From: Patescibacteria group bacterium | GTDB lineage: Bacteria > Patescibacteriota > Microgenomatia > UBA10105 > UBA927 | Reading direction: 5' to 3' | DNA length: 64,000 nucleotides | Assembly (NCBI GenBank): GCA_035510735.1 | Contig: DATKGN010000010.1 | Coordinates: forward strand, 27,814 to 91,813 | Part shown: one piece after another, positions 4,633 to 34,056 of the stretch | Layout: every line of letters starts with the position of its first letter | Numbering within the stretch: position 1 is the stretch's first letter | The notes under the pieces: generated by a model | Seen by the model: the letters and a program-made list of their open reading frames with translations, nothing else | What the model was told of the DNA's origin: nothing | Database searches by the model: none | Position numbers and translations under genes: made by a program

Positions 4633-4738
4633 ACATCATTTGTCATCGCGAGTCCGTTCTTACGGCGCGGCGATCTCCAAAACCTGCATGTGTAGGACGG
4701 AAAGATTGCTTCGTCGCTCGACGACTCGCACGATCGCA

Positions 4739-8388: not shown

Positions 8389-8751
8389 GTGAAAACATTT
8401 CGTTTTCTTGATTTTCCCGTTTATAAGGAATCAAAACTCTTTCATCAATACTGCATTAAAATAACCACAGCATTACCTCGAACATATTGGGAATTAGGTG
8501 ATCAATTGCGACGTGCTGCACTCTCCATTTGTTTGAATATTTCAGAGGGATCAGCTAAATATTCTGACCGAGATTTTAAGCGTTTTATTGAAAACGCATT
8601 AGGGTCCGCAAATGAGTCATTCGCATGTCTTGATATCGCGATTAACCAGAAATTAATTACCCAAAAAACATTTCTAGAAGGGCAAACGCTAATAGAGAGC
8701 ATTACTAGGCAACTTGGAGGATTATCAAAAAAGCTTCGTGCGTTTTGTTAA
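8389..8751 (+). CDS. four-helix-bundle protein (23S rRNA intervening-sequence protein family)
   Basis: Family motif 'DQLRRAALSICLNISEGSAKYSDRDFKRFIENALGSANE'. Flanked by inverted 'ttgttaat' repeat blocks. Confidence 0.8.
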   Translation: MKTFRFLDFPVYKESKLFHQYCIKITTALPRTYWELGDQLRRAALSICLNISEGSAKYSDRDFKRFIENALGSANESFACLDIAINQKLITQKTFLEGQTLIESITRQLGGLSKKLRAFC

Positions 8752-8830
8752 TTTGTTAATTTGTTAATTTGTTGTTTCCGTCAATTTGTTAATTAGTTAC
8801 TTTGTTAATTGGTAAATTTGTCACAATCGC
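8752..8830. repeat. tandem 8-nt 'ttgttaat/aatttgtt' repeats
   Basis: 'tttgttaatttgttaatttgttaatttgttg...ttgttaattagttactttgttaattggtaaatttgtc'. Confidence 0.7.
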
Positions 8831-9055: not shown

Positions 9056-9067
9056 ATTAAAAGAAAT

Positions 9068-9155
9068 GAGAGCATTAGTGTTTAGAATTTAGCGTGAATT
9101 AATTAACTGAGCCCAAGTCTCTAATGCACTAAACTCTAATTTACTAAGCTCCTCT
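9068..9155. repeat. 'TAGAG/CTCTA'-word imperfect palindromic element (family copy 1)
   Basis: 'agcattagtgtttagaatttagcg...ctctaatgcactaaactctaatttactaagctcc'. Confidence 0.55.
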
Positions 9156-10980: not shown

Positions 10981-11409
10981 CTCCAAAATGCCATATTGAC
11001 AACCAAAGATTCAGTGTACTACGATAACTATGCTCGTGTGGAGAACTTGAAGCTTATTTTTCTCTACAAGTTCAAAACAATTGAGGTATCCTGATAATTT
11101 CTATCAGGAGACAGGACTACGTGTCTTATTACCCGAGGGTACTAAGCCAGTCCATCCGATTTACGAATCGGGAAAAATACTTCAAGCCCACACAAGCGGA
11201 ATTATTTATTTGATTGGACATTTTCCCCTCTTCTCGTTCCCTTTTCACTCTCCGTTTGATACCCGAGTAGAACACTCGCCGTTCCCGATCCGTCAGCTGA
11301 CGGATTCGCGCCCGCCCGCCAGCGAGGCAGGTCACGGTGTCGTGTCTACAGGGCCCGGCAATTTATGTTCCACTCATCGAGTAAATTTGATACAATCTAT
11401 AAAACACTC

Positions 11410-11481
11410 GCCTCTCTAGCTCAATGGCAGAGCGACGGTTTTGTAAACCGCTGATAACAGTTCGATTCTGTTGAGAGGCTC
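11410..11481 (+). tRNA. tRNA-Thr (anticodon TGT)
   Basis: Cloverleaf: acceptor gcctctc/gagaggc, D-stem gctc/gagc, anticodon loop ttTGTaa, T-arm aacag-ttcgatt-ctgtt. CCA not encoded. Confidence 0.7.
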
Positions 11482-11498
11482 ATGTTCATCAATGAGGC

Positions 11499-11822
11499 TC
11501 ACTTGAAGTATTTCGAAAGCACCTCTTTTTCAAACGGCGTATCTTCAAATAACCGGTTAAATTCAAAAAACGCCTTTTCGTTTAAACGATAGGTGATAAG
11601 TCTGCCGCGCTGAAGCTTCAACACCCACCCGCCCAGATATAGCTGCTTCAAGTGATGGGAAACAAGATTTTCCGCGAGTCCCAAATGATCCGTTATTTCA
11701 TTGACTTCCATCGGCTCATGAGCCAATAAATAGAGAATAGCCAACCGGTGTGTGTGGGCAACCCCGTGGATCCGCCTCGCAAATGGTTTCACTTTTTCAC
11801 GCAATCGTGCCCGGGTCAACAT
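11499..11822 (-). CDS. ArsR/SmtB-family transcriptional regulator
   Basis: HTH 'HRLAILYLLAHEPMEVNEITDHLGLAENLVSHHLKQL'. Confidence 0.75.
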   Translation of the reverse strand: MLTRARLREKVKPFARRIHGVAHTHRLAILYLLAHEPMEVNEITDHLGLAENLVSHHLKQLYLGGWVLKLQRGRLITYRLNEKAFFEFNRLFEDTPFEKEVLSKYFK

Positions 11823-11835
11823 ATGAAAGTGAATA

Positions 11836-12150
11836 TTATTGAACTACCTGAATCGAATCAACGTAGAGTGTCGTTCCGGAATTCTGGCCGGTAGCTGCAA
11901 CTTTTTTACCCAGATATAGGTCTAAATTGACGGAATAAGAAGCGACTCCCCACGAATTTCCGTCACCGACGATAATATGGGTGAAATCGGCTCCGGCTAC
12001 TGTTGATTTGCTTAATATCCCGGTCCGCGTAATTTTTGCAGTCTGATAGACCGTACTTGCGGCTTCTTTACTGCCGAAATACCGAATAGCGAAATACCCG
12101 CCAACTGCAACAATGACGAGAAAAAGAATACCTACTAAAAATGCTTTCAT
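11836..12150 (-). CDS. hypothetical secreted/membrane-anchored protein
   Basis: N-terminal TM/signal 'MKAFLVGILFLVIVAVGGYFAI'. Upstream of ArsR. Confidence 0.5.
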   Translation of the reverse strand: MKAFLVGILFLVIVAVGGYFAIRYFGSKEAASTVYQTAKITRTGILSKSTVAGADFTHIIVGDGNSWGVASYSVNLDLYLGKKVAATGQNSGTTLYVDSIQVVQ

Positions 12151-12234
12151 ATATAGTCACTGTATAAAGATCCGCACACCTCGTCAAGGACATCGTATTC
12201 AAAGAAGTAAAAAACAGATATAATAGGCACCATA

Positions 12235-12285
12235 GCTGGGATGGCGGTCGCCTCATCGGTGACCCGCCGATGAGGCGGGAGTGGC
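12235..12285 (+). other. tRNA-Tyr 5' fragment interrupted by a perfect 11-bp hairpin
   Basis: 'gctgggatggcgg' (identical to the first 13 nt of the tRNA-Tyr at 12547) + hairpin 'cgcctcatcgg-tgaccc-gccgatgaggcg' + 'gcgggagtggcc' (compare tRNA 'gcggagtggtc'). Confidence 0.6.
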
Positions 12286-12291
12286 CAATGT

Positions 12292-12543
12292 ATGTACTAT
12301 GTCTATATACTCAGAAGTATTAAAGACGGTAAACTATATATTGGCAAAACACGTAATCTCAGAGATAGATTTAATAAACATGAGCAAGGCCAAGTAACTG
12401 CAACAAAAAATAGATTACCCGTGCAGTTAGTCTTTTATGAGGCATTTGTCAATAAAACGGACGCGGGACGAGAAGAATTATTTTATAAAAGCGGTTTTGG
12501 ACGTGAGGCATTACAAAGCAAATTATTGAACACACTAAAATAA
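12292..12543 (+). CDS. GIY-YIG nuclease superfamily protein (small stand-alone)
   Basis: 'MYYVYILRSIKDGKLYIGKTRNLRDRFNKH' contains the GIY...YIG motif. Confidence 0.75.
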   Translation: MYYVYILRSIKDGKLYIGKTRNLRDRFNKHEQGQVTATKNRLPVQLVFYEAFVNKTDAGREELFYKSGFGREALQSKLLNTLK

Positions 12544-12546
12544 CAA

Positions 12547-12631
12547 GCTGGGATGGCGGAGTGGTCAAACGCAACAGTCTGTAAAACTGTCGCCTTAACG
12601 GGCTACCTAGGTTCGAATCCTGGTCCCAGCA
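12547..12631 (+). tRNA. tRNA-Tyr (anticodon GTA), class II with long variable arm
   Basis: Acceptor gctggga/tcccagc, 3-bp D-stem, anticodon stem acagt/actgt with loop ctGTAaa, long variable arm, T-arm ctagg-ttcgaat-cctgg. Confidence 0.8.
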
Positions 12632-12864
12632 CCCTTCGACTCGCGCGGGCTCGCTCAGGGCAAGCGTACGAGTCGATAGTAAGACCAGAATGAGAAGTTG
12701 AGTCGTAATCGACGAAATCCTGAGCGTTTACCCTGAGTACTATCGAAGGAAAGTCGAAGGGAATCCTGGTCCGGAGCACTTTTCGACTCTCCGCCAATTG
12801 GCGGATCGTTCAGGGCAGGCTCATAAATTGACGAAGGATACGAATCTATACTATAGTAAGTTTC

Positions 12865-13833
12865 ATGGATCCAACTGTCCCATCTGACCCGACAAACATC
12901 GCTCCTCCGATTGATTCCACACCGGTAAAACCATTAGATCCTGTCATACCTTCCCAAATTAAACCCTCCTTTTTCGATAAAATCATTGCGCTTTTTATGC
13001 CACCGTTTACACCACAGAAGATATTGGCAATTGTGTTATGTGTCATTGTTGTTCTAAGTATAACCGGCGGACTATTCGTATTCGGCATGAGAGCGCAGTC
13101 AAAAAACGGTACCCCATCACAGGCTCCGGTCGCATTATCATCATCGCCAACACCGACAGACATCCCAACGGATACACCAACAGATGCAGTCGTACCGACG
13201 GACACCGATACACCAACTCCAACGATCGCCGTTTCACCGACGCCAACAGTGAACCCGATGCCGACATCTACAGGAACACCTACTCCAACACCGACACCAA
13301 GTACTCAAACGCAGACGATTACATCGCAGGCATCACTGGATGGCTATGAGTCAAGCGACGGAAGCGGCAGCACGACGGGAGATATTCAGGCGGGAAGAAA
13401 TAATGCGCTGACTATGAGGGGTTTTGTCAGTTTCCCGTTAAATTCAATTCCCACAGGCGTCACCATTGATCAGGCAACGATCCGGCTATACCAAAAGAGT
13501 GTTGATGGTAATCCATACAGTGCTTTAGGCAATCTGGTATTAGACCATCTGAATTATGCAACACTTGATAATTCAGACTATGACAATAGCTCAGAGATTA
13601 TTTTATCCAACTTCGCAACACTCAGTTCTTCGGCCGCAACGGGAGAATGGCGGGAAGCCGATGTATCGGATAGGGTTAGAGATGATATAACAAACCATAG
13701 AAGTAACTCACAATACCGATTGCGCTTCTCAACGGAAACTGTCGGCGGCGGAGGAAGTGGAGACTTTGCACATTTTGAAGCAGCAGATACCGGATCAAAT
13801 ACTATTCCACAACTCTTCATCCGTTATCATTAA
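12865..13833 (+). CDS. secreted Pro/Thr-linker protein with C-terminal DNRLRE-like beta domain
   Basis: TM/signal, long 'PTPTDIPTDTPTD...TPTPTPTPS' linker, then 'LDGYESSDGSGSTTGDIQAGRNNALTMRGFVSFPLNSIPTGVTIDQATIRLYQ', which resembles the DNRLRE domain. Confidence 0.45.
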   Translation: MDPTVPSDPTNIAPPIDSTPVKPLDPVIPSQIKPSFFDKIIALFMPPFTPQKILAIVLCVIVVLSITGGLFVFGMRAQSKNGTPSQAPVALSSSPTPTDIPTDTPTDAVVPTDTDTPTPTIAVSPTPTVNPMPTSTGTPTPTPTPSTQTQTITSQASLDGYESSDGSGSTTGDIQAGRNNALTMRGFVSFPLNSIPTGVTIDQATIRLYQKSVDGNPYSALGNLVLDHLNYATLDNSDYDNSSEIILSNFATLSSSAATGEWREADVSDRVRDDITNHRSNSQYRLRFSTETVGGGGSGDFAHFEAADTGSNTIPQLFIRYH

Positions 13834-14027
13834 ATTCTCTGAACTTTCGACTTTTATTTTTCATATACACTTATGTCGAGAGTCCTCATTATTAGCCTAT
13901 ACATCAATGTAATTTACATTACAAAAACTTCGAAAAATCATCAATAAATCATAAAATATTTTCTGCCCACGACCCCCTCATTTTACCCTATTGCATTTCT
14001 ATAAAATAGTGTTTATATTATGGTTAT

Positions 14028-14531
14028 ATGGAAGAAGAAACAATGGAAAACTCAACCAGCAGCAGTAGTTCTATGTATTATGTATTGGGTGCTATCGTTC
14101 TTGTCGCAGTCATCGGGGCAGGCTATATGCTGAGACCGAAAACTGACACTTCAACATCAGCCCCTGTTGCTATGACACCGGCACCGACGCCGACACCGGG
14201 TCCGATTACACGGCTTGCATGTGATACGCAATATTACAATCCGGTTCTCGGATTTCCGAAATACTACCTCTCTGCACAGGGAGGCGATGTGACCGGTGCG
14301 ACAAAAGTTGACTGTGCGATGACAATGATACAGGAAAATAAAGTCGTAGCTACTCAGACAATCACGTCACCGTTGACGGCAAATCCGGCACGGGGCGGAA
14401 GTGAATTTAAGTGTACGACACCGGGTGTTGAGCTTAAACCGACAGTTCCTACCAAAGTTGACGTCGTATTGACGGATGACCAGGGAGCAAAAGCAACATG
14501 CAGCGCGTCATTCTCGCTGCCTAAATCATAA
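14028..14531 (+). CDS. small secreted protein with TM anchor and PT linker
   Basis: 'YYVLGAIVLVAVIGAGYML' TM helix, 'PAPTPTPGP' linker and a Cys-containing C-terminal domain. Confidence 0.5.
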   Translation: MEEETMENSTSSSSSMYYVLGAIVLVAVIGAGYMLRPKTDTSTSAPVAMTPAPTPTPGPITRLACDTQYYNPVLGFPKYYLSAQGGDVTGATKVDCAMTMIQENKVVATQTITSPLTANPARGGSEFKCTTPGVELKPTVPTKVDVVLTDDQGAKATCSASFSLPKS

Positions 14532-14546
14532 ATCTATTTGAAACTA

Positions 14547-14580
14547 TAAAAAACCGCGGGATTAGCCGCGGTTTTTTTTG
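14547..14580 (+). terminator. rho-independent terminator
   Basis: 'aaaaaccgcggg-atta-gccgcggtttttttt'. Confidence 0.65.
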
Positions 14581-14589
14581 ACATTTTGG

Positions 14590-14660
14590 ATGTCATTGCG
14601 AGACCGTTCATACGCCTGCCTGCGCAGGCAAGGAGAAGCAATCTCTCAAAGAGAATGCAC
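14590..14660. repeat. TGTCAT-element (partial copy)
   Basis: 'tgtcattgcgagaccgttcatacgcctgcctgcgcaggcaaggagaagcaatctc'. Shares the 'tgtcattgcgag' and 'gaagcaatc' blocks. Confidence 0.55.
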
Positions 14661-14705
14661 ATCAACATCGAGAAAAACGTAAGAAATCAGGAAGAATCCC
14701 GGAGT

Positions 14706-15692
14706 TTATTTTAAATACTTAGTGTAAAATGCAACATCGCGGGCGACAACCGTATTCCAGGATCCTGTCATATCATGATCAGCGCCGGAATAGGTATAAT
14801 ACGTAACATCCTTCCCCTTCCCTTTCAGTTGGCTTGCAAGCGCGTCACTCCAAGCCAAAGGAACTGCATTGTCAGCTGTCCCCTGATGAAGTTGAATAGG
14901 TCCTTGGACCCTGTCGAGGTAATTGGTTAGCGAAAATAATTCAACGTCATAGAGTTTTTCAAACGCTGCCAACTCTTTGCGTAATAATTTTCCGTGATCA
15001 TCGGCGTCATCCGTGTAATATAAAATGGAATACGGAAATGGTTTTGAAACCGGTGCCCATAGCACTAGGGGATACGGTTTAGCTACTATTTCTGAAACGG
15101 TAAGAGCGATATGACCGCCGTTACTGTGGCCCCAGACACCCACACGCGATGCGTCTACCATTGACAGTGATCCCACTGAAACCAAGAGATTGACTGCAGT
15201 CGTATACGTTTGAAACCGCTCCTCAAACACATCGCCTGATGGTTTGTCCGATCCTCCGAATCCCAAAAAATCAGGAGCCAGCGTTATAAATCCGTTTTGT
15301 GCATATACCTCTGCACTATGCGCTGTCCCATCTCCCGAAAAATAATTTGCCGGATCTATAAAACCGCGGTACTCTACGATCACCGGTTTTTTATTGACTG
15401 GGGAAGCGTCGTTCGGAATATGTGCAACACCCGTTACTTTGAGCCCGTCACTTATATAATGGAAGGCGTATACGGTATAGGCTGATGTTGTCGCGGTGGC
15501 ACCATCAAGAATAATTTGCGTCGGAACATATTGCCGCCTACTGAGATTTTCTATCGTATATTTGAGAAGCGGCTTCGGCGTTACCATCCCAAGCGGCGAG
15601 AGGATTCCTGAAGATATAGCACGATTCCCGATGTAATATCCCGCCCCGAACGCAACACAAACAGAAATGACGAGGATAACGATCCATTTCAT
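14706..15692 (-). CDS. alpha/beta hydrolase (S9/dienelactone-hydrolase-like), secreted
   Basis: N-terminal TM, nucleophile elbow 'GVWGHSNGGHIAL' (GxSxG). Confidence 0.7.
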   Translation of the reverse strand: MKWIVILVISVCVAFGAGYYIGNRAISSGILSPLGMVTPKPLLKYTIENLSRRQYVPTQIILDGATATTSAYTVYAFHYISDGLKVTGVAHIPNDASPVNKKPVIVEYRGFIDPANYFSGDGTAHSAEVYAQNGFITLAPDFLGFGGSDKPSGDVFEERFQTYTTAVNLLVSVGSLSMVDASRVGVWGHSNGGHIALTVSEIVAKPYPLVLWAPVSKPFPYSILYYTDDADDHGKLLRKELAAFEKLYDVELFSLTNYLDRVQGPIQLHQGTADNAVPLAWSDALASQLKGKGKDVTYYTYSGADHDMTGSWNTVVARDVAFYTKYLK

Positions 15693-15862
15693 GCGATTAA
15701 GTGTATCACGCTTCTGTCGTCATTGCCTCTTCTCTCTCGAATTTGATAGAATCGAAGAATCACGCCGGAGATGGCTCCCACCTTCGTGATGACTTCCGCC
15801 TTCGCTGAAGCTTCGGTGGACAAGTCGGTGGGCGGCAGTGGTAAAATGTTTCTTTATAAGCA

Positions 15863-15890
15863 CAGATAGCTCAGTGGTAGGGCGAGTTCC
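15863..15890 (+). other. truncated 5' half of a tRNA-Thr (pseudo-tRNA fragment)
   Basis: 'agatagctcagtggtagggcgagttc' closely matches 'ggatggctcagtggtagagcgagttc' of the intact tRNA-Thr 30 nt downstream. Confidence 0.45.
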
Positions 15891-15921
15891 GGTGCCGTAA
15901 TCTAAGCCGTGTAAAAAATAC

Positions 15922-15993
15922 GCCTGGATGGCTCAGTGGTAGAGCGAGTTCTTGGTAAGAACTAGGTCGGGGGTCCAATTCCCCCTCCAGGCT
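15922..15993 (+). tRNA. tRNA-Thr (anticodon GGT)
   Basis: Acceptor gcctgga/tccaggc, D-arm gctc-agtggta-gagc, anticodon stem agttc/gaact with loop ttGGTaa, T-arm ggggg-tccaatt-ccccc. Confidence 0.8.
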
Positions 15994-15995
15994 CA

Positions 15996-16110
15996 AGAGC
16001 TTACGCGGCGAGATTACGGGATAATACCTAGATCGAGGGTCCCCCGCCTGCCAATCGCCTTCGGCGATAACCGATGGCGGGCAGGGATTCCTGCCTCAAC
16101 GCTTGCCTCA
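15996..16110. repeat. tRNA-associated element (copy 1)
   Basis: 'agagcttacgc...ccccgcctgcc...ggcgggcaggga', shared with the segment downstream of tRNA-Trp. Confidence 0.5.
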
Positions 16111-16253
16111 TCGCGATCCGGTTCAAAAAAATTCTCCCAAAAACCACTCGTGTTGCCATCTAGTCCATAAATATGTAACTATGGATATATACCCTTCACA
16201 ATTCTAAATTGTTTCGGGTATAACTCCTTCTCATCCAAATCCGCAAGGAGGAT

Positions 16254-17186
16254 TTGGAAAGAAGCGTATATATGAGTTTATTCTCATTTTTTATTGGCGT
16301 GGTGTTTGCGGCAGAGATGGTGATTTCCCCGCTGGCTGACAGCGTTTCACCAATATCGACAAATACAGCGAAGCCAACAATCTCATTCGGAAACCTTCTG
16401 AGTTACAAATCATCAATATCGGAAAATGTTTTAGGAGCATCCGTCGAAGCTTCGCCAACCGCAACGCCCGCCGAAGCTTCAGCGCAGGAGGGAACGCCAA
16501 CCCCTATTTCATACCATGCACGGAAAAGCCATTATACGATTGCGCTCCTCGGCGATTCGATGATAGATACGTTAGGGCCTGACGCTCCCCAATTAAAGGA
16601 TAAATTACACGTACTTTTTCCTGTGACAACATTCAAAATACTTAATTACGGCGTCGGAGGAACCAATATCGATTACGGGCTCGAGCGTCTCACGAATGCC
16701 TACACCTATCTCGGAAACAACATCCCGTCTCTTATATCAACAAATCCCGACGTCGTCGTCGTCGAGTCATTCGGGTATAACCCATATCCGTATGATGCAG
16801 GAGCCTTAGATCACCATTGGCTGCAGCTTGCGGCGATCGTCCAAACGGTTAAGACCGATATCCCGGGCGTGAAGATAATCATAGCGGCAACTATCGCACC
16901 TAACAGCCAGGTATTCGGTGACGGAGCACCGGGGATTTCCTTTGCCCCGGATGATAAAATCAGAAGAACTTCGACCATAAAACAATATCTTGATTCAACG
17001 GTAAAGTTTGCGCTTAGCCAACATCTGCCGCTTGCGGATGTGTTTCATGCAAGTATCGACAGAAACGGAGACGGCCTTCTCATGTATATTAATCCCGGCG
17101 ATCACATTCATTATTCTGATGCCGGACGCACGCTTTTTGCCCAAATTCTTGCAGGTACCATTATCGATAACCATATACTCGAATAA
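16254..17186 (+). CDS. secreted SGNH/GDSL-family hydrolase
   Basis: Signal/TM, block I 'IALLGDSMIDT', block II 'GVGGTN', block V 'DHIHYSDAG'. Confidence 0.65.
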   Translation: MERSVYMSLFSFFIGVVFAAEMVISPLADSVSPISTNTAKPTISFGNLLSYKSSISENVLGASVEASPTATPAEASAQEGTPTPISYHARKSHYTIALLGDSMIDTLGPDAPQLKDKLHVLFPVTTFKILNYGVGGTNIDYGLERLTNAYTYLGNNIPSLISTNPDVVVVESFGYNPYPYDAGALDHHWLQLAAIVQTVKTDIPGVKIIIAATIAPNSQVFGDGAPGISFAPDDKIRRTSTIKQYLDSTVKFALSQHLPLADVFHASIDRNGDGLLMYINPGDHIHYSDAGRTLFAQILAGTIIDNHILE

Positions 17187-17230
17187 TAAACCCCTTGGCG
17201 GGAACGCTCGAATGCGATATAATTGTTTTT

Positions 17231-17302
17231 GAGAGATTAGAGCTTAGGGTTTAGAGCTTAGTAAATTTCTTACTAAACTCTAATGCGCTAAACACTATAC
17301 TC
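17231..17302. repeat. TAGAG/CTCTA palindromic element (copy 2)
   Basis: 'gagagattagagcttagggtttagagcttag...ctaaactctaatgcgctaaacactatactc'. Confidence 0.6.
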
Positions 17303-17310
17303 TATTTTAT

Positions 17311-17484
17311 ATGGCCAAGAAAGATCAACGGGAACTGCTTGCACTCATCTGCACTGTATGTAAATCCCAGAACTATATTACAAAGAGGAATAAGATCAAT
17401 ACGCCGGAAAAACTGGTGCTTCAAAAGTATTGTCCTCACTGCCGAAAACATACACAACACAAAGAGACGAGTAAGTTGGATTAA
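17311..17484 (+). CDS. rpmG: 50S ribosomal protein L33
   Basis: 57-aa ORF 'MAKKDQRELLALICTVCKSQNYITKRNKINTPEKLVLQKYCPHCRKHTQHKETSKLD', the canonical L33 CxxC...CxxC zinc ribbon. Too short to appear in the ORF track. Confidence 0.8.
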   Translation: MAKKDQRELLALICTVCKSQNYITKRNKINTPEKLVLQKYCPHCRKHTQHKETSKLD

Positions 17485-17520
17485 AAGAGCTTAGGGAATT
17501 AGGGTATTAGAGTTTAGGAA
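17485..17520. repeat. TAGAG/CTCTA palindromic element (copy 3, short)
   Basis: 'aaaagagcttagggaattagggtattagagtttaggaat'. Confidence 0.5.
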
Positions 17521-17521
17521 T

Positions 17522-17896
17522 ATGGAAAAGTCCGTATTTAACTTCGAGAGACTCACGGTATACCAACGTGCATTAGCATTCGCCTTGAACATTTATTCAC
17601 GTACACAAAAATGGCCGCGGGAACATCTTTTTGGTTTAACAGATCAACTAAGAAGAGCATCTTTATCCATTCCGTTAAATATCGCTGAGGGGTATAGTAG
17701 GTCGCGAAAAGACTTTCAGCATTTTTTGACTCTATCACGGGGATCCTGTTTTGAATGTGTTCCGATAATAAAACTAGCGGAGTCTCTCACTTTGCTTACT
17801 TCAAAAGAAGCTGATATGTTTTATAATGAATTAGAGGAAATTGCTAAGATGCTTAGTGGACTACGGAGTTCGCTATTGAAACAACCTAAACTCTAA
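17522..17896 (+). CDS. four-helix-bundle protein (23S rRNA IVS protein family)
   Basis: 'DQLRRASLSIPLNIAEGYSRSRKDFQHFLTLSRGSCFEC'. Bracketed by TAGAG-family repeats on both sides. Confidence 0.8.
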   Translation: MEKSVFNFERLTVYQRALAFALNIYSRTQKWPREHLFGLTDQLRRASLSIPLNIAEGYSRSRKDFQHFLTLSRGSCFECVPIIKLAESLTLLTSKEADMFYNELEEIAKMLSGLRSSLLKQPKL

Positions 17897-17935
17897 AACC
17901 CTAAGCTCTAATCTCTAATGCTCTAAACTCTAACT
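17897..17935. repeat. TAGAG/CTCTA palindromic element (copy 4, short)
   Basis: 'aaccctaagctctaatctctaatgctctaaactctaact'. Confidence 0.5.
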
Positions 17936-18457
17936 ATGCATCGTAATACGTATTTTGTCGTGACGTTCTTAGCGGTTTTTGCCGCACTGGTAGTCGGAGT
18001 TAACATCGGGAAGAAATTCACGGGTCAAAATGCCCCGCCAATCCAACCTTCTCCCACCGCTTCACCCACACTTGCATCTATCCCATTATCTACTTATACA
18101 AATTCTGAGTGCGGCGCTACGTTAGAATTTCCAAGCACCCTTACGAAGCTTGAAGACGGCTCAGGAAGCGCAGTCCTTGTCAACCAGACCGATACAAAAC
18201 AATCCATTCTTATCACCTGCCAGGATAGTATCCCGCGGCCGCCCTTAGATTCAAATAAAATTGTGCAGGCGTTCGTACCGTATTCAACCGGCACCGGAAG
18301 CGTCGCGGCAACGCTCTATCACGACAGTTCGGCAAAAGACGGAACACCGGTCGACGACTTTATCGTCCGGATTCCGAAAACAACATTGGATTTTTATCTC
18401 TCAGGATTCGGCACCGCCTTCGATGACGTTGTGAAATCTATTCGACTCACCCACTAA
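17936..18457 (+). CDS. hypothetical membrane-anchored secreted protein
   Basis: TM 'YFVVTFLAVFAALVVGV', Pro-rich linker, no catalytic motif. Confidence 0.5.
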   Translation: MHRNTYFVVTFLAVFAALVVGVNIGKKFTGQNAPPIQPSPTASPTLASIPLSTYTNSECGATLEFPSTLTKLEDGSGSAVLVNQTDTKQSILITCQDSIPRPPLDSNKIVQAFVPYSTGTGSVAATLYHDSSAKDGTPVDDFIVRIPKTTLDFYLSGFGTAFDDVVKSIRLTH

Positions 18458-18568
18458 CCTCTTTTTATCACCGCATTAGCATTAAAACAGACTGGAAAAC
18501 GTTAAAACAATTCGGGTGTTCGTATCACGGTTTAATTAAACAGCTGAAACTGATAAAATAGGTCCATT

Positions 18569-18638
18569 AGGGCCATGATGCAATGGTAGCATGAGGGTCT
18601 CCAAAACCCTTCATCCAGGTTCAAGTCCTGGTGGCCCT
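18569..18638 (+). tRNA. tRNA-Trp (anticodon CCA)
   Basis: Acceptor agggcca/tggccct, D-arm atgc-aatggta-gcat, anticodon stem agggt/accct with loop ctCCAaa, T-arm ccagg-ttcaagt-cctgg. Confidence 0.8.
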
Positions 18639-18717
18639 GCAAAGGGGTCGTGGTTCCCCGCCTGCCAGAGCTTACGCTCAGGCGTTAGCGGGCAGGGACT
18701 CCACGTGGCCCTGCAAA
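18639..18717. repeat. tRNA-associated element (copy 2), bounded by a direct repeat of the tRNA-Trp 3' end
   Basis: 'gtggccctgcaaa' occurs at 18631-18643 and again at 18705-18717. Between them lies 'ccccgcctgccagagcttacgctcaggcgttagcgggcaggga'. Confidence 0.6.
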
Positions 18718-18791
18718 CCAAACACGTTAGAATGACACTATTGTTCATTATTTCGTTTCATTTCGAAAATCTTCTATTATAGAATATAACT

Positions 18792-19322
18792 ATGCGTAAA
18801 CAATATTTACTTATACTCTGTGGACATCCATTTTCCGGCAAAACAACTCTCGCTCAAGCGATTGTAAATCAATATGATTTGGCATTTGTAAATCTTGACG
18901 AAATAAATCGAAGCCGAGGTGTTGGAATCAAGGGTAAGCCCATGACTCCTCGACTCTGGAAAGAAACGTACGAGTTGGGTTTTAAAGAAACAAAAAAACT
19001 ACTACAAGGTGGAAAATCAGTTGTATATGAAGGAGCCAACTTTACCGAACTACTTCGGTCAGAAATTCTAGCCATAACAAAACATACAAATATTATTCCA
19101 ATCATCATACACGTTGCCACAACCCAGAACGAATGCCATAAAAGATTACTACACAACCGGAAAACAAATAGTAGATACGACGTTAAAGACAAAGATTTTT
19201 CATTAGTATGTAATAACTTTCAGATACCGACTGAAAAAGAAGCAAAAGTACTTACGTATAATGCAGACTCTCCTCTGGGTTATTGGCTAATAGAGAATCT
19301 AGATGTTTGCTTTAAAAAATAA
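18792..19322 (+). CDS. P-loop NTPase/nucleotide kinase-like (AAA_33/zeta-toxin-like fold)
   Basis: Walker A 'LCGHPFSGKTTLA'. AT-rich by eye compared with its neighbours. Confidence 0.55.
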   Translation: MRKQYLLILCGHPFSGKTTLAQAIVNQYDLAFVNLDEINRSRGVGIKGKPMTPRLWKETYELGFKETKKLLQGGKSVVYEGANFTELLRSEILAITKHTNIIPIIIHVATTQNECHKRLLHNRKTNSRYDVKDKDFSLVCNNFQIPTEKEAKVLTYNADSPLGYWLIENLDVCFKK

Positions 19323-19365
19323 TATAATTCATCACAGTCTACCGGTGCCGGCATCTTAAAACACT

Positions 19366-20091
19366 ATGTTTACCTACGAACAAATATTTAAGGATAAACA
19401 CTCAGTTTTATTCGTAACTGCGCATCCTGACGATATTTTGGTTTATTATGCTGCTCTCGTTCATAAACTTCGAAAAGAAAATAAAAACGTATATGCCGTA
19501 ACGGTAACGAATGGCGCCCGGGGCAGTGGTGATAAAAACATATCGGAATCGGAACTTTCCCGTATGCGCATAAAAGAAGAAACTGCTGCCCTCAAGTTTT
19601 TGGGAGTCAATGCGGAAAATACGCTTTGCCTCGATTATAAAGACGGCGAGGTGGAAAGTAACTACAAGTTCATTGGTGAAATTTCAAAATATATTCGCAA
19701 ATTCAAAGCTGACATCGTCTGCACTCATGAGCCAACGGCAATCTATCAAGCGACGTATAAACGTGATGGATTTTTCGTCCAACATCGGGATCATCGAAAA
19801 GTAGCGGAAGCGGTGGTTGATGCCGTATATCCCTTCTCACGAGATCGATCATTCTTTCCCGAGCAAATAAAAGAAGGCATCGAACCGCATACGCTTTACG
19901 ACATCGTTATGACGGACGAAATCTCATGTAATTTTGAACTGGATTACACTGAAGATTTAGAGGTTAAAAAGGCAGCGATGCGTATTCATAAAAGCCAGTT
20001 TGATGAAGCATTTATCAACGATATTGTGGATACGGTACGAAATAATGATCGGTACGTGGAAAAATACTTCTATGTAAAACTATTATGGTAA
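19366..20091 (+). CDS. PIG-L/LmbE-family N-acetylglucosaminyl deacetylase
   Basis: 'LFVTAHPDDILVYY' (AHPDDE motif) and downstream His/Asp-rich motifs. Confidence 0.7.
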   Translation: MFTYEQIFKDKHSVLFVTAHPDDILVYYAALVHKLRKENKNVYAVTVTNGARGSGDKNISESELSRMRIKEETAALKFLGVNAENTLCLDYKDGEVESNYKFIGEISKYIRKFKADIVCTHEPTAIYQATYKRDGFFVQHRDHRKVAEAVVDAVYPFSRDRSFFPEQIKEGIEPHTLYDIVMTDEISCNFELDYTEDLEVKKAAMRIHKSQFDEAFINDIVDTVRNNDRYVEKYFYVKLLW

Positions 20092-20804
20092 ACAAGCTCC
20101 GACCGACTGTTATTTGCCATATGATGATGACCATCGATGGGAAAATCACGAGTGGTGAACAAACAGATATTCTCAACAACTATTTTGACCTCTATACCAA
20201 AACGGAAGATATGCTCCCCGCTCATACAGCTTGGATGTGCGGACGTGTGACGATGCAAATGTTTGCGAGTACTAAAGATGTCTCCCTACCAACGCCATCA
20301 CATGCTATTGAGCCAATAGATTATATAGCCCCGCACGAGGGCAATCTGTTCATGTTCGGTGTGGACACTAAAGGCGTACTCCGTTGGGGTAAAAACTCAA
20401 TAAAACTCTCAAATGTTGCCGAGCCGCTCCATCTGGTAGTCATAGTGACCACATCAACTCCGAAAGAGTATCTCCAATATCTGCAAAATAATGGTATCTC
20501 GTATCTCGTAGCGGGTACTAATGAAATAGATTTCCTTAAACTTTTTACAACAATGAAGGAAAAATTCGGAGTTGAAACGCTTCTTCTTGAAGGTGGCGGT
20601 CTTCTCAATGGATCAGTAATGGCAGATAACCTCGTCGATGAAATTAGTATACTCGTCACACCTACAGTGACCAATCGAAGCAAAGCTCCATCAGTATTTG
20701 AACGAAAACAAGAAGAACCCCTAAACCTGCGACCCTACTCGCTCGTGGGTGTACAAAAACTAGATAAAGACACGGTTTGGTTGAGGTATAAAAAACATGA
20801 ATGA
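20085..20804 (+). CDS. RibD C-terminal domain/dihydrofolate-reductase-like reductase
   Basis: 'VICHMMMTIDGKIT' start typical of the RibD_C/DHFR-like family, and 'LLLEGGGLLNGSV'. Confidence 0.6.
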   Translation: MVNKLRPTVICHMMMTIDGKITSGEQTDILNNYFDLYTKTEDMLPAHTAWMCGRVTMQMFASTKDVSLPTPSHAIEPIDYIAPHEGNLFMFGVDTKGVLRWGKNSIKLSNVAEPLHLVVIVTTSTPKEYLQYLQNNGISYLVAGTNEIDFLKLFTTMKEKFGVETLLLEGGGLLNGSVMADNLVDEISILVTPTVTNRSKAPSVFERKQEEPLNLRPYSLVGVQKLDKDTVWLRYKKHE

Positions 20805-21081
20805 TAGCATTTATACACAAATACAAACAATTTCTGACGGTGGATTTGGCTCATGTGATGTATACACAATGAAGTCCGGCGGGATCGAGCGGAAACACTA
20901 CCATAACGGCATCGAAATCGTATATGTCATCAAAGGAAACTGTAAAACTCACAAGCAGGGACAAGTATACGTCTATCAAAAAGGTCAAATCCACGAAGTG
21001 ATTAATGACTCGAAAAATGAACTTGTTTTTGTTTGTTTAACAATCCCTCCGGAATCAAAAGAAAATACTATGTATATATAG
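20797..21081 (+). CDS. cupin-domain protein
   Basis: 'HYHNGIEIVYVIKGNC...GQVYVYQKGQIHEV', the two cupin motifs. Confidence 0.6.
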   Translation: MNDSIYTQIQTISDGGFGSCDVYTMKSGGIERKHYHNGIEIVYVIKGNCKTHKQGQVYVYQKGQIHEVINDSKNELVFVCLTIPPESKENTMYI

Positions 21082-21118
21082 AGCAACTATTATTTAATAA
21101 AACCATAAATTATCCTCC

Positions 21119-22003
21119 ATGTTTCAAATACTAAACTTTTTTGAACGAATGTATTGGAAAATATCACGAAAAATTGTGGGATTGACGAGCTACAAAGTCT
21201 ACCATGATGACCCACTTCATGAATTTCCCATCCTGCCATTTCCTAAGTTTGTCCGGTCAGTAAAAACCAAACTGAAACGAAACAACGGCACGTGGTTTCT
21301 TGACATGAAACTCGGAAATGAAAAGCGTATGACCTACGCATTTTTGGAAAAACCATTTGACCCCAAACAACCGACAATTATTTTTCATCACGGAGCCGGA
21401 ATGATCAATTATCGAAATTTATTATGGCTCTATTTCCTCCGCGGACCATTAACCAAATACAACCTTATTTCAATTAAAGCCCAGGAGCATGAATCCACGA
21501 TGACGTTTGCGAAAACCGGATTTAATACGCTTACTCACCAGCTGGCGACATTCGCGGGATCCGTTCTCATGGTCGAAGCGCTGGTGAAATGGCTGCGGGC
21601 AGAGCGATCAATGCCTGTGGTAATCGGCGCGTCCATGGGCGGGATTGTCGCTTCTTGGCATTGGTTATTATTTAATACGGCAGCGTTTTATTTTCCCATC
21701 ACCGCATATCCAAATGTGACGGAAATATTTTTAGGTGTCGGCTATGACGGCGCGACCGACCACCGATACGAAAGGCAATTATTATCAACATATGCGAATG
21801 CATTTCTTGCGCCTTGGAAGAATCCAAAATTATATAAAGACAAGGTGTTTCCCATTCTCGGAAAAAATGACACGATTGTCCCCTATCAACACGCACGCGA
21901 ATTCTGGAAGGGATATGATGTACTCACCTTCCCGAATGGCCACATGACAACGGCGCTTCATTATAATAAGATAACCACACACATCGCATCAAAGCTGCCG
22001 TAG
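21119..22003 (+). CDS. alpha/beta-fold hydrolase
   Basis: 'IFHHGAGM' and nucleophile elbow 'VIGASMGGIVA'. Confidence 0.5.
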   Translation: MFQILNFFERMYWKISRKIVGLTSYKVYHDDPLHEFPILPFPKFVRSVKTKLKRNNGTWFLDMKLGNEKRMTYAFLEKPFDPKQPTIIFHHGAGMINYRNLLWLYFLRGPLTKYNLISIKAQEHESTMTFAKTGFNTLTHQLATFAGSVLMVEALVKWLRAERSMPVVIGASMGGIVASWHWLLFNTAAFYFPITAYPNVTEIFLGVGYDGATDHRYERQLLSTYANAFLAPWKNPKLYKDKVFPILGKNDTIVPYQHAREFWKGYDVLTFPNGHMTTALHYNKITTHIASKLP

Positions 22004-23261: not shown

Positions 23262-26200
23262 GTGAATTTATATCAATCGAGAACGCATTTTGTCATGACT
23301 CAGCGGAATTATCTTCTGCGCGTTTTTATCGGCCTTGTTCTCCTTTTCCTCTTGCCGTTATTTATTTGGGCCGTATTGACACAGCGGATTGAGCTTCGTA
23401 AACGGGCTGCTTCTGCCGAACCGGTCACATGTTGGGGTCGGGCTTTCGAACAAAATAATACTCCTTATTGGCCTGACCGATGCGGCGCCGGCGGAGCAAA
23501 CGCAAGTTCAAGCGCCTGTGCACAAGTGACAACGCCGTTATCAATCGTTGAAATGTCCGGATACAAAAAATGGAAAACGGAAGGAAGAAAACCAATCTAC
23601 GGTTGTGTTGCCCCAATTAACTGGCAAACACAATACGCTTCCCTTCAGGCGAGTGACATATTGGTCGTAGCAAACGATAGCTCATTCACAGCAAATTACG
23701 CAACCGATCTCGTGCTACATTCAAATCCACCCGATACAGATCCCAACTACATGACGCTTGAGTCAACGTGGACGCAAAACGGGTTCAATATGGGATTGAA
23801 TATGTATTTTACGGCAGAGACGGCAACCCCAGCCGGGATACTCGGGATATTCGGAACCCCGTCCCGAAAGTGGCGCGTCACGGAAATCAGAACGTCTGAC
23901 AGCCAAGTCGGCAGCGGTTGGATTTATTATAAAAATCCGAACATCCCCGCGATGAATATAGGGAAACCATTCACAGGAACTATTGATTTGACGTCAACGG
24001 ATGGCGGCACCGGAGAGATACGATTTACGAACCTTCGTCTCCAGGCATTCTTAAACGAAACTCCTCCTAATCCAAGTCACACGCCTAAACCGATACCAGC
24101 ATCTTCAGAATGCGGCCCCTGCGGTTCTGGTTGCCCTTCGGGTCTGGTTTGCCAAACTATGCCGACGCCTACGCCGTTTTGCCCAAATGGCTCCAACGGA
24201 CCCTGTAGCACGATAGTCGTTAGCCCCTATCAGGCATGTGTGAAACCGGACGGCTCAAGCCTGTGTCCCGTACAACGTGATGCTATGTGTTTCGGGCAAC
24301 CCAACGGAAAACAATGTAACGGCGCGTGTACCGATTCGATGCCAACGCATTGTTCTACCGGCGTCTGTCAAAACAACCAGTGTGTCTTTGACTCGACCCC
24401 CACGCCGACGCCCGTAGCATGTCTTGACGTCACAAGAGCGCTCGCGAGCGTTGCTCCCCTGAAAGCTGGCTCGAGTATTGGCTTAAATTGGGGCGGCCTC
24501 AATGAAAAATGGTTCCAGGATAAAAATAATCAGTGGTATTATATTTACGCAGATCCGAGCGGCGTACCGCCGCTCTATGTTGTTTGGCTTTGGAACGGGG
24601 CCACGGGACTTCAGCAAAATGGTTATAATGTCCGAGGAGATGCCCCAATAACGCCTTCAACAAAAAGCTGTTACGACGCCATAACGCCGGACTATGTTTT
24701 CCCATCAATTGCACATAGCTCGTGTGCGGGCCCAAATGGCTCAACATGTCAATACGACGATTGCAATACATGTACTACAGTTCCTAACGGAAAAGTTCAT
24801 TGCACATTAGAGAAGGCATGCATGAAAACGGGCATCTGTACGAACAATCTCTGCCAACCACCCCCTGCCCCGACTCCAACGCCGCACAATTACTGTGCCG
24901 GTGCGAACGGCTCAACCTGCCAATACGACGCCAGCAATACGTGTACTACAGCTCCTAACGGAAAAGTTGCTTGCACATTAGTGAAGGCACGTATGAAAAC
25001 GGGCATCTGTACGAACAATCTCTGCCAATCTGCGCCAAGCCCGACTCCAACGCCGCACAATTACTGTGCGGGCGCAAACGGCACGGCTTGTCCGTATACA
25101 CCGTGTACTCCCTGTAACGGCACAAATTGTACAAACATCTGGTGCCCTGCCACTCCCGGAATGTGTACAAATAATCAATGCCAGCCACCGCCTCAAGCGG
25201 GATGTTATTATCAGACAATGGAATGTTTTGCGGCGCCGTGCCCGGTTACGCTCGTGTGTCCGACGCCTACGCCGACACCCGCCTGTGTCAGAAACAACCC
25301 GACTATAACTATTAATCCATCAAATCAATCCGGCCACCCGGGCGATAATCTATTTTATAAAATATTATTTACCGATACAGACAGCCGTGAATGTGCCCCA
25401 TCTGAATTTTCCATAACTGCACAGCCGGGCACGGGTCTGACATCCTTATTAACATTTACAACCTTACCTAATGTGTATCCCCAAAATACTCCCGGTGATG
25501 GCATGAATGTGACGTCTGCCACGTCAGGTTTTTCATCACCCACAACGGTTCCGATTATTGTCACCGTAACTAATAACAATTCAGGATTGTATACACAGCT
25601 CAATACAACAACATACACCATCGTACCAACGCCGACTCCAACGCCTACTCCGACACCCTCACCCACACCGACGCCGACAGTTACGCCGACGCCGACCAAT
25701 AGCCCGACGCCGACGCCGACGCCCACGCCGACGCCGCAGAATTTGGAATTCCTGGTGAAGCTCGCCGGCGTTACCGGTGGAGCAGCTGAAGGCGCAAAGA
25801 TAACCGTTAAATTTAATGTGCAGGGCGGATCGACGCTCCAATTATCATCACCCCTCACGCTTACTCATATCGGCAACGGTGTGTATAGAACAACAGCTAC
25901 GATCACAAATCCATTCCCAGCAGGCACAAACTATACTATTTCCATCAAAGGTGAAAAGCACGCGGCAATTGTATTCACTCATCAATCGAGCCAGACGAAT
26001 GAATGTTCCGACGGGCAATATATTACGATGCCGAACCCCGTGCCAAGCGGATTGACATTTGACTTTACCGGTGTACCACTCCCTGCGGGAGACACAAATC
26101 CTCAGGATAATCAGGTTAATCAAACTGATATCGACCGCGTCGTAGCGCTCATGGGGAAATCAAGTAGTAGTCTGACGGATAACGATAAACTCGTCGGCGA

Positions 26201-32244: not shown

Positions 32245-32264
32245 ACTTATCTAGCGAAATCCAG

Positions 32265-32391
32265 AGCGAAGCGTCGGATTGAGCTAGACTTCCTTCAAGT
32301 TAGTAAATTATAAATCTTCTCCAGCGAGATCCCGATGAGCGAAGCGATATCGGGATACGAACTCGACTTCCTCCAAGTTTCAAAACTTTAA
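32265..32391 (+). repeat. two re-coded tandem copies of the nusG 3' end (last 10 codons + stop), each with an adjacent hairpin
   Basis: 'gagctagacttccttcaagttagtaaattataa' (32281-32313) and 'gaactcgacttcctccaagtttcaaaactttaa' (32359-32391) both encode ELDFLQVSKL-stop, the same as the nusG C-terminus, with different codons. Hairpin 'atcccgat-gagcgaagcgat-atcgggat' lies at 32329-32356. Confidence 0.75.
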
Positions 32392-33970: not shown

Positions 33971-34052
33971 AGAGCTTAGAGCATTAGAGTGTAGAGCTTA
34001 GTATTTCTAAACTCTAAACCTAAACTCTAATGCCCTAATTTACTAAACCCTA
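33971..34052. repeat. TAGAG/CTCTA palindromic element (copy 5)
   Basis: 'agagcttagagcattagagtgtagagcttag...ctaaactctaaacctaaactctaatgccctaatttactaaaccctaact'. Confidence 0.6.
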
Positions 34053-34056
34053 ACTT

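Follow-up and report, generated by a model that had tools for sequence, protein, structure and literature searches.

Why do the four tRNA genes in a 64,000-nt (64 kb) stretch of a Patescibacteria contig (DATKGN010000010.1, hereafter the window, whose positions serve for all coordinates below) lie beside partial copies of themselves? An initial annotation took the copies for scars of insertions into tRNA genes that had retained an intact gene, and relatives and synteny upheld this. It also called the scars att-like, which in the usual sense did not hold, as there was no integrase in the neighbourhood, the DNA between repeats measured 45-470 nt, and the sole open reading frame (ORF) in it encoded a GIY-YIG nuclease. 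The observation was thus largely right, and the interpretation was right in geometry and wrong in agent. We propose that the partial tRNA copies are displaced ends left after repeated insertion of small selfish cassettes, built of GC-rich hairpins and a minimal GIY-YIG ORF, into tRNA genes, and we give this reading a probability of about 0.62.

ARAGORN and Rfam concurred on four tRNA genes, all on the plus strand, as first annotated. Rfam searches, with gathering cut-offs over the full window and with an E limit of 10 over 11000-19000, recovered only these four tRNAs besides noise (Leu_leader and other spurious matches at 14.5 kb). No family claimed any of the fragments, so the covariance-model scans did not assign them to other structured RNAs, the outcome that the initial annotation had named as refuting. 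Repeats were scored by local alignment against 500 shuffles each. The tRNA-Tyr 3' repeat (12615-12665 vs 12761-12820, a gapped match of ~50 nt) scored 37 against a shuffle maximum of 27 (0/500), and the tRNA-Trp 3' repeat (18631-18643 and 18705-18717) was identical at 13/13 positions (0/500). The 5' fragments matched their genes at 14/14 positions for tRNA-Tyr (12234-12247 vs 12546-12559) and 23/25 for tRNA-Thr(GGT) (15865-15889 vs 15927-15951), again with 0/500 shuffles reaching either score. The element described as common to the Trp and Thr(GGT) sites was likewise recovered (16038-16091 aligned with 18652-18702, 0/500), and its shared blocks CCCGCCTGCC, GCGGGCAGGGA, and AGAGCTTACGC each occurred exactly twice in the window, at those two elements. 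The claim for tRNA-Thr(TGT) did not survive as worded: the second GAGGCTCA lies at 11494-11501 and not at 11504-11511 (10 nt off), and 75/500 shuffles reached the same 8-nt match, which by itself is not beyond chance.

That 8-mer and the several public contigs that break inside these tRNA genes are what speaks for chance matches or metagenome-assembly artefacts. As an account of the whole this is hardly credible: four repeats beat all 500 shuffles, identical structures occurred in independent assemblies from other samples (L001-L004, L009, L010, L215-L220), and the same architecture was found in dozens of unrelated genomes. Logan contig breaks within tRNAs were considered as evidence of strain polymorphism and dropped, since De Bruijn unitigs also break at sequence shared across species.

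A lineage-specific 173-aa protein adjoining tRNA-Trp placed the organism among Patescibacteria (Microgenomates/Gottesmanbacteria-like). Contigs of syntenic relatives were obtained through this protein, which was 80% identical to the window's in L005 and about 45-50% identical in L011, L013, and L214 (~45% in L214). The four tRNAs had the same order in all four relatives as in the window. Polymorphism among relatives, named beforehand as a test in the initial annotation, was found throughout, with fragments present or absent by genome at every site. Because the fragments abut conserved flanks and their presence varies by genome, we interpret the tRNA-adjacent part-copies as the displaced original gene ends, with the intact tRNA sitting within the inserted DNA. 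The features of the four sites are collected in Table 1.

Table 1 Features at the four tRNA sites, in order of window position, with the basis for each call.
Feature	Position	Strand	Basis
Promoter-region insertion before tRNA-Thr(TGT)	11255-11393	+	Sequence reading, comparison with L005 and L011
tRNA-Thr(TGT), intact	11410-11481	+	ARAGORN; Rfam 64.3 bits
19-nt insertion vs L005 (tgttcatcaat, 11 nt, plus 8-nt GAGGCTCA)	11483-11501	+	Alignment with closest relative
TATAAT (-10-like), 10 nt before the tRNA-Tyr 5' fragment	12219-12224	+	Sequence reading
Displaced tRNA-Tyr 5' end	12234-12288	+	Alignment, folding
83-aa single-domain GIY-YIG nuclease ORF	12292-12543	+	Pfam PF01541, E 1.1e-14
tRNA-Tyr(GTA), intact	12547-12633	+	ARAGORN, Rfam
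Non-coding insert 'E', 127 nt	12634-12760	+	Folding, relatives
Displaced tRNA-Tyr 3' end and tail copy	12761-12822	+	Alignment, shuffles
Promoter-like TTGCCT-18-TAGAAT	15723-15752	+	Conserved in L005
Oldest displaced tRNA-Thr(GGT) 5' end	15764-15843	+	Sequence reading, relatives
Second displaced tRNA-Thr(GGT) 5' end, positions 1-30, acceptor strand diverged	15860-15889	+	Alignment, shuffles
tRNA-Thr(GGT), intact	15922-15994	+	ARAGORN, Rfam
Degenerate tRNA-Thr(GGT) 3' copy (variable loop, T arm, acceptor)	16027-16103	+	Alignment, folding
tRNA-Trp(CCA), intact, T stem CCAGG/CCTGG	18569-18640	+	ARAGORN, Rfam
tRNA-Trp 3' copy, different allele	18649-18717	+	Alignment, folding, relatives

At the tRNA-Tyr site, the intact gene was enclosed between a displaced 5' end with an ORF and a displaced 3' end with a non-coding insert. 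The 5' fragment consisted of tRNA positions -1 to 13 (12234-12247), a GC-rich palindrome of 31-32 nt (12248-12278), and positions 14-23, GAGTGGCCAA (12279-12288). The initial annotation was correct about this copy and mistaken about its hairpin, which it gave as 11 bp; the palindrome folds as a 14-bp hairpin or a double hairpin, and folding gave -33.1 kcal/mol (z -2.3). The TATAAT ahead of the fragment was not picked up by a two-hexamer promoter scan, and on sequence reading is likely the promoter from which the tRNA was first transcribed and which now serves fragment, hairpin, ORF, and tRNA alike.

The ORF, which the initial annotation overlooked, directly followed the 5' fragment and had its stop codon 3 nt ahead of tRNA-Tyr. 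It was present in single copy in the window and was the only ORF there enclosed between any fragment and its tRNA. The catalytic domain spanned all 83 aa with no separate DNA-binding domain, and the GIY-YIG catalytic residues Tyr, Tyr, Arg, His, and Glu were invariant across the family alignments. Its closest solved structures were the UPF0213 proteins 1zg2 and 1ywl, with SLX1 next. NCBIfam provided no family name, and gave sub-threshold matches to the GIY-YIG parts of UvrC and intron endonucleases.

The ends of insert 'E', downstream of the tRNA, pair mutually (CCCTTCGACTC...CTCAGGG / CCCTGAG...GTCGAAGGG; -44.6 kcal/mol, z -2.9). This insert was homologous to the one following tRNA-Tyr in L013, and the same kind of inverted repeats flanked a GIY-YIG ORF in L054. 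Beyond it lay the 19-nt 3' fragment GAATCCTGGTCCGGAGCAC, which covers the tRNA from its T loop to its 3' terminus (12761-12779), and then a second CTTTTCGACTC..hairpin..TCAGGG tail (12780-12822). In L005 an identical 19-nt fragment, with the same double hairpin as the window's 5' fragment in its T loop, abutted the conserved flank ataaattgacga.

The tRNA-Tyr cassette was present in the window, L005, L013, and L214, and the site was empty in L011. The L005 ORF appeared on manual reading to be a pseudogene, with a 1-nt deletion, an in-frame stop, and an extra poly-A base restoring the frame; no gene was called there. The upstream hairpin interrupted the tRNA-Tyr fragment at position 7/8 in L214 and 13/14 in the window. 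ORF and host did not share a history: at this same site the GIY-YIG ORFs of L214 and L013 were 39% identical while the flanking Rieske protein was 75% identical, and the L214 ORF was 73% identical to the window's while the flanking 173-aa protein reached merely ~45%. The ORF tree was discordant with the host tree, and the ORF has thus turned over horizontally at the tRNA-Tyr site.

At tRNA-Thr(GGT), displaced ends were found on both sides of the gene. The oldest 5' fragment, missed by the initial annotation, comprised GCCGGAGATGGCTC (15764-15777), a 58-nt palindromic insert (15778-15835), and CAGTGGTA (15836-15843). It began exactly at the tRNA start of L005, just past the conserved promoter-like sequence, which ended 11 nt ahead of it. 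The degenerate 3' copy carried a 44-nt hairpin (16043-16086, CCCGCCTGCC...GGCGGGCAGGG) in its T loop. Both 15764-15921 and 16027-16103 were absent in L005, L011, L013, and L214, which had nothing inserted upstream or downstream of tRNA-Thr(GGT).

The tRNA-Trp 3' copy had the corresponding anatomy, a T-arm identity that the initial annotation had not recognised for either of these two elements: T stem CGTGG (18649-18653), TTCC, a 40-nt hairpin (18658-18697), ACT, CCACG, the acceptor strand TGGCCCT, G, and CAAA, folding at -38.9 kcal/mol (z -2.9). Its T arm (CGTGG/CCACG) was that of the functional tRNA-Trp of L005, and therefore fragment and gene are different alleles. The copy was also found in the independent assemblies L001, L002, L009, and L010. 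Compensatory T-stem changes in the copy had been considered as a sign of selection on an RNA, and this was dismissed since the T arm is simply the L005 allele. The hairpins of the Trp and Thr(GGT) elements form a second family (CCGCCTGCC...GGGCAGGG), which outside same-strain contigs was found just in L059 and L182.

The DNA past tRNA-Trp is a variable gene-cargo hot spot without an integrase. Gene content between tRNA-Trp and a conserved Wzy_C gene differed in each relative (window 18718-22003, L011 10653-13860, L013 10649-11160), and the contigs of L007 and L008, which belong to one species, that of L005, diverged immediately past the tRNA-Trp 3' end GTGGCCCTGCAAAG. Such variability is what integrase islands or prophages would produce if they had inserted with a replacement tRNA part and later been almost wholly deleted, leaving attL/attR-like repeats. 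Directly repeated tRNA 3' portions that begin in the T or anticodon loop, reportedly described by Williams in 2002 as typical of integrase elements, also occur here, exactly so at tRNA-Trp, and the tRNA-part repeats at the Trp, Tyr (3' and 5'), and Thr(GGT) sites bound inserts. We nevertheless consider this origin quite improbable. Pfam annotation of the genes at ~6-28 kb of the window and of the neighbourhoods in relatives contained no integrase or recombinase, so the classical att reading fails on its defining feature. The repeat intervals were short, upstream 5' fragments were as frequent as downstream 3' fragments, and the ORF recurrently enclosed, over 45 loci, was a GIY-YIG and not an integrase. 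No further tRNA-Trp 3' copy that could bound an island reaching to secE/rplK was found within the window.

The tRNA-Thr(TGT) site combined a small downstream insertion with one in the promoter region. Since the L005 comparison shows a 19-nt insertion, the 8-nt copy of the tRNA end is, on alignment, probably a real small duplication; it provides the stop codon of a convergent ArsR-like ORF (11499-11822, minus strand). Upstream, TTTGATAC at 11255-11262 and 11386-11393 bracketed ~123 nt of GC-rich palindromic DNA. The complete TTTGATACAAT (-10-like) upstream of the gene was the proximal copy, and TTTGGTACAAT / TTTGATAGAAT were single in the tRNA-Thr(TGT) promoter regions of L005 and L011. L005 instead had there a tRNA-Thr(TGT) 5' fragment (positions 1-35) split by the 32-nt hairpin known from the tRNA-Tyr 5' fragment, and the window had no such fragment.

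To place the tRNA-Tyr arrangement among other genomes, ORF homologues were collected with a close-homologue alignment (A2), an earlier one (A1) having been too diverse for locus finding. At least 562 relatives of the ORF were present in one-genome-per-species contigs, and 80 loci were retained, mostly from Patescibacteria, with homologues mostly of 82-107 aa. A co-oriented tRNA lay within 170 nt of the ORF in 45/80 loci, against ~4.6 expected even from the locally high tRNA density. Fifty such tRNAs were on the ORF strand and none (0) on the opposite strand, and they represented at least 13 tRNA identities. The usual orders were fragment-hairpin-ORF-tRNA or tRNA-ORF-3' fragment. Where the tRNA followed the ORF, its first 11-24 nt recurred, often exactly, 40-80 nt upstream of the ORF; where it preceded the ORF, its 3' part, from position ~32 or ~56 to the end (e.g. 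32-74), recurred past the ORF. In ~25 further loci a duplicated tRNA part flanked the ORF with the displaced end outside, as at the window's tRNA-Tyr. The 450 nt on either side of 104 tRNAs from non-redundant loci held 34 upstream and 18 downstream same-strand self-copies that were 11 nt or longer, compared with 0 and 3 in reverse-complement controls; a few of the same-strand matches were neighbouring tRNAs with common conserved motifs.

Two further loci (L110 7916-8417 and L154 608-800) held an intact tRNA (Gln and Thr-CGT, respectively) together with a nearly full-length second copy, whose D arm held the double hairpin and whose acceptor strand was non-complementary. Near-full copies of this sort may be early stages of fragments of the type found in the window.

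The hairpin at 12248-12278 belongs to a family that a pattern scan of metagenome contigs, made independently of the ORF, recovered in at least 120 contigs. The family occurred in L005 (three copies), L214, L030, L038, L039, and L078, with a single copy in the window. It was found at tRNA-Gln and tRNA-Gly genes elsewhere and at Tyr, Thr, and Pro genes too. In fragment-ORF-tRNA loci the upstream fragment was nearly always broken by one or two GC-rich hairpins, and the module was mostly confined to one side of the ORF, which in most such loci was upstream. A tRNA D-arm 12-mer (up to 2 mismatches) abutted 42/123 copies vs 37/615 random positions, and with 0 mismatches 26 copies vs 3 random positions. 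A GIY-YIG ORF started 9-38 nt downstream in 18/82 copies; many other copies were in ORF-less arrangements of fragment, hairpin, short spacer, and tRNA, like the Thr(GGT) site of the window. The preferred flanking bases were (T)AG to the left and GG to the right, and no target-site duplication was seen at the hairpin borders. The stem of the second hairpin covaried (CC/GG 67, CT/AG 19, TC/GA 10), and both variable pairs stayed Watson-Crick in 97/117 distinct copies by way of three main pair types, which means that selection acts on the hairpin itself.

Selection of this kind could mean that the fragments are functional signals, such as processing sites, terminators, stabilisers of mRNA 5' ends, or decoys for tRNA-binding enzymes, and not scars at all. 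The hairpins do fold significantly better than shuffles, the fragments lie between promoter and gene and are probably transcribed, and the Tyr 3' fragment GAATCCTGGTCCGGAGCAC was the same in the window and L005. We regard this as very improbable: presence and absence varied between close relatives at every site, no Rfam family matched at E up to 10, the acceptor strands were non-complementary and the break points variable, and a DNA hairpin recognised by a nuclease would equally show stem covariation.

Ends of protein genes in the window were duplicated in a comparable way. The last ten codons of nusG and its stop (ELDFLQVSKL plus stop) occurred three times in tandem, at 32212, 32281, and 32359 (32212-32391), parted by short spacers and hairpins. 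The copies differed at 8-9/33 nt, all synonymous, where just 21% of random single changes in this end would be. The rplL end recurred at 39654-39698 (region 39480-39934) with the same amino acids in different codons, and three more 56-nt units (39729, 39805, 39879) carried ...GAGCTCAA(A/G)TAA copies, with a hairpin of the ATCCCGA...TCGGGAT type lying before or within each. With synonymous differences only, each copy must have evolved as a working gene end, and therefore the current and displaced ends come from different lineages. The genome-wide habit of targeting 3' ends that the initial annotation proposed was real in this respect (the nusG end three times, the rplL end at least twice); its restriction to 3' ends was not, as 5' ends were hit as often.

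Alleles of different origin bear on whether any mobile element is needed. Slippage or template switching provoked by palindromes, followed by decay, could duplicate tRNA parts locally, with the GIY-YIG gene a resident that is merely co-transcribed; many fragments exactly match the neighbouring tRNA, hairpins sit at nearly all junctions, and L110 and L154 hold their near-full second copies with a hairpin. Local duplication would leave unexplained the other alleles in fragments (the L005-type Trp T arm and the synonymous-only nusG copies), the disagreement of ORF and host trees at one site, the occurrence of one hairpin family at Gln, Gly, Tyr, Thr, and Pro genes of many genomes, and the pseudogene and empty-site states in close relatives. 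We judge it unlikely.

The insertion of selfish cassettes, which we favour, would proceed as follows. A full cassette would consist of a GC-rich hairpin or double-hairpin module and an ~85-aa single-domain GIY-YIG ORF, many copies being ORF-less derivatives that have either decayed or been mobilised in trans. Insertion would take place at or near the D, anticodon, or T loop and would bring or generate a second copy of the interrupted tRNA part, such that an intact tRNA persists beside the cassette. The old end would be pushed outward, decay, and gather hairpins, and repeated events would stack fragments. The nuclease would cut tRNA-gene or hairpin DNA, perhaps extruded or single-stranded, in keeping with where the breaks lie (the D, anticodon, and T loops). 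A filled donor would then serve as the repair template, and the cassette would be copied along with the adjoining tRNA part, a homing-like, nuclease-driven spread that we infer by analogy with the mORFs of fungal mitochondria. With the old tRNA promoter on one side of it and the intact tRNA on the other, the ORF probably shares a transcript with the tRNA; that promoter would drive it, and RNase P cleavage would release it. By the same analogy, the ORF-less Trp and Thr(GGT) units and the nusG/rplL stacks would share this process.

Several observations weigh against this account. The protein has no DNA-binding domain, unlike characterised GIY-YIG homing enzymes, and its role as a nuclease is predicted only. 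Three of the 4 window tRNA sites (Thr-TGT, Thr-GGT, and Trp) lack the ORF, so that the nuclease is linked to them by analogy. The 80 loci were picked by ORF similarity, and the majority are contigs of metagenome-assembled genomes (MAGs). Many loci have a 5' fragment that matches 12-24 nt of the intact tRNA without a single difference, and such exact copies fit in-place duplication or gene conversion better than foreign import. For the two tRNA-Trp copies, the present sequences are compatible with either being the native one. Two thirds of the hairpin copies do not adjoin tRNA sequence, which marks the hairpin as a dispersed element of its own; it may be independent and merely survive in dead tRNA copies. 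Its position also varies (7/8 in L214, 13/14 in the window, 21/22 at the Gln/Gly loci), which a single inherited cassette fails to explain.

Other repeats and insertions occurred elsewhere in the window. An ORF of the 23S_rRNA_IVP (four-helix-bundle) family at 17522-17896 (window 17486-17932) lay between rpmG and the next gene, with flanking inverted TTAGGG/CTAAACTCTAA-type repeats (17499-17518 with 17885-17904; 17232-17252 with 17896-17916). It was missing at that position in L005 and present in L013, so it represents a second kind of small polymorphic cassette. Long imperfect palindromes of AGAGCTTAGAGCATTAG... and CTAAACTCTAA units flanked rplK and preceded rplJ (33971-34567, 38388-38448), and such units were also found at 9062-9151 and around rpmG. 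Hairpin repeats starting TGTCAT fell into two families (4641-4677, 14591-14627, 41095-41131; and 41262-41285, 43592-43615, 50148-50180), one copy of which (50180, minus strand) fits the published SRM consensus of Ssn-associated repeats. Tandem 8-nt repeats (AACAAAGT / AACTAAGT and complements) were intergenic at 5367-5557, 5690-5741, 8739-8822, 41554-41604, and 56047-56122. The rplA ORF (34562-35419) encoded 285 aa, and the Pfam L1 domain matched it in two parts, most strongly over residues 169-278, a pattern suggestive of an extended ribosomal protein L1 or of one with an insertion. Within a 1006-aa ORF (23262-26282) that also has Pro/Thr-rich repeats, 171 nt were duplicated in tandem at 86% identity (24723-25064).

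If the favoured reading is true, minimal selfish nuclease/hairpin cassettes land again and again in the tRNA and ribosomal-operon genes of the smallest bacterial genomes, following an insertion logic until now documented mainly in fungal mitochondria. It would account for pseudo-tRNA fragments and odd intergenic hairpins in Patescibacteria MAGs, and may explain frequent contig breaks at tRNAs. The cassettes would be markers of horizontal exchange among hard-to-study lineages, and would provide an uncharacterised branch of single-domain GIY-YIG nucleases with a natural setting and with candidate targets in DNA, a matter of interest since proteins of this type were recently found able to act as site-specific single-stranded DNA (ssDNA) nucleases. 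Annotators would also be warned that the working end of a conserved gene may have been imported, with the native one surviving nearby as a relic. A bolder and distinctly tentative proposal, which we doubt more than we favour, is a new class of bacterial mobile element: a minimal module of hairpin and ~85-aa GIY-YIG ORF that specifically colonises tRNA genes and the ends of other highly conserved genes of the nusG/rplL type, uses the host promoter, regenerates the gene part so that the host stays viable, moves horizontally among Patescibacteria, and leaves behind piled-up displaced gene ends as well as hairpin derivatives that lack the ORF. The nuclease of such a class would possibly be Ssn-like, acting on single-stranded or extruded hairpin DNA.

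The cassettes are a widespread variant, in Patescibacteria, of a known selfish-element strategy, and apparently one not yet described: literature searches, subscription journals being outside our coverage, found no account, for Patescibacteria or any other group, of GIY-YIG genes nested within tRNA genes. Integrase islands and prophages insert into a tRNA gene, restore it, and leave a partial-copy direct repeat, with break points in the anticodon or T loop. The units here differ in having no integrase, a size of tens to hundreds of nt, upstream 5' fragments, and a nuclease as the enclosed gene. Hairpins as introns of functional tRNAs were ruled out; unlike group I or archaeal bulge-helix-bulge introns, they lie in copies that are partial or have non-complementary, unpaired acceptor strands, and Rfam gave no group I intron match at E up to 10. 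Like REP sequences and MITEs, the hairpin is dispersed, multi-copy, and subject to compensatory changes (97/117), and it differs in having no target-site duplication. Paquin, Laforest and Lang reportedly described, in 2000, GC-rich palindromic or double-hairpin elements of fungal mitochondrial genomes. Those too are short, GC-rich, dispersed in an AT-rich genome, and often situated by mobile endonuclease ORFs and gene ends. The sequences are unrelated, and the present hairpin prefers a (T)AG|GG context and has a third of its copies within tRNA D-arm fragments.

Among bacterial and phage systems with small nucleases, the rRNA genes of the candidate phyla radiation (CPR) contain insertions that are not introns, lie at stem-loop tips or bases, and encode GIY-YIG or 23S_rRNA_IVP proteins (PMC11270868). 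Shared features are the phylum, both small ORF families (the 23S_rRNA_IVP cassette included), and a preference for loops in structured-RNA genes. Those insertions interrupt a functional rRNA gene, whereas here the functional tRNA is uninterrupted and a duplicate part is left. T4 SegB is a free-standing GIY-YIG homing endonuclease in a tRNA gene cluster that cuts the rival allele and promotes inheritance of its own gene and the flanking tRNA region (PMC2330249). The likeness is a GIY-YIG gene among tRNA genes; SegB is a larger, modular phage enzyme, and the abstract describes no duplication of tRNA parts and no hairpin modules. Unlike I-TevI and the Seg proteins, the ORF here has no separate DNA-binding domain for site specificity. 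Ssn proteins (cd10448; Neisseria SsnA) are ssDNA nucleases of ~100 aa with a GIY-YIG domain and no other; an oriented NTS/SRM hairpin repeat, dispersed in the genome, flanks their gene, and the authors remark on the IS-like repeat-gene-repeat architecture (PMC11893778). The cassettes resemble them in the single-domain GIY-YIG protein of about that size; the dispersed hairpin module adjoins the ORF in part of its copies and usually on one side. The ORF here is closest to UPF0213 among solved structures, the SRM consensus HGTCWYN(0-2)YYVSBRHN(0-5)WNVSBRGN(0-2)RNCYNB was not enriched within 300 nt on either side of the ORF (2/80 loci), and neither tRNA nesting nor gene-part duplication of Ssn genes is reported in PMC11893778.

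The nearest analogue, in our comparison, is the mORF of fungal mitochondria. Gene hybrids of this kind are known from Allomyces macrogynus atp6 and from atp6, atp9, cox2, and nad3 of Glomus, and they consist of the gene core, an imported gene end, an endonuclease ORF (LAGLIDADG, or GIY-YIG in atp9), and the displaced native end (PMC3630166). Imported and native C-termini differ largely synonymously, the ORF is co-transcribed with the host gene, the insertions are polymorphic among close relatives, and endonuclease-driven mobility was shown in Allomyces (PMC3630166). The cassettes here differ from mORFs in residing on a bacterial chromosome, in targeting tRNA genes (and also nusG and rplL ends), in duplicating 5' as well as 3' ends, in their bare ~85-aa catalytic domain, in the GC-rich hairpins within displaced fragments, and in the many ORF-less units. 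Common to both are a gene-part copy, an endonuclease ORF, and a displaced native end, and the cassettes share with mORFs an intact catalytic motif, filled and empty sites among relatives, and a discordant ORF tree.

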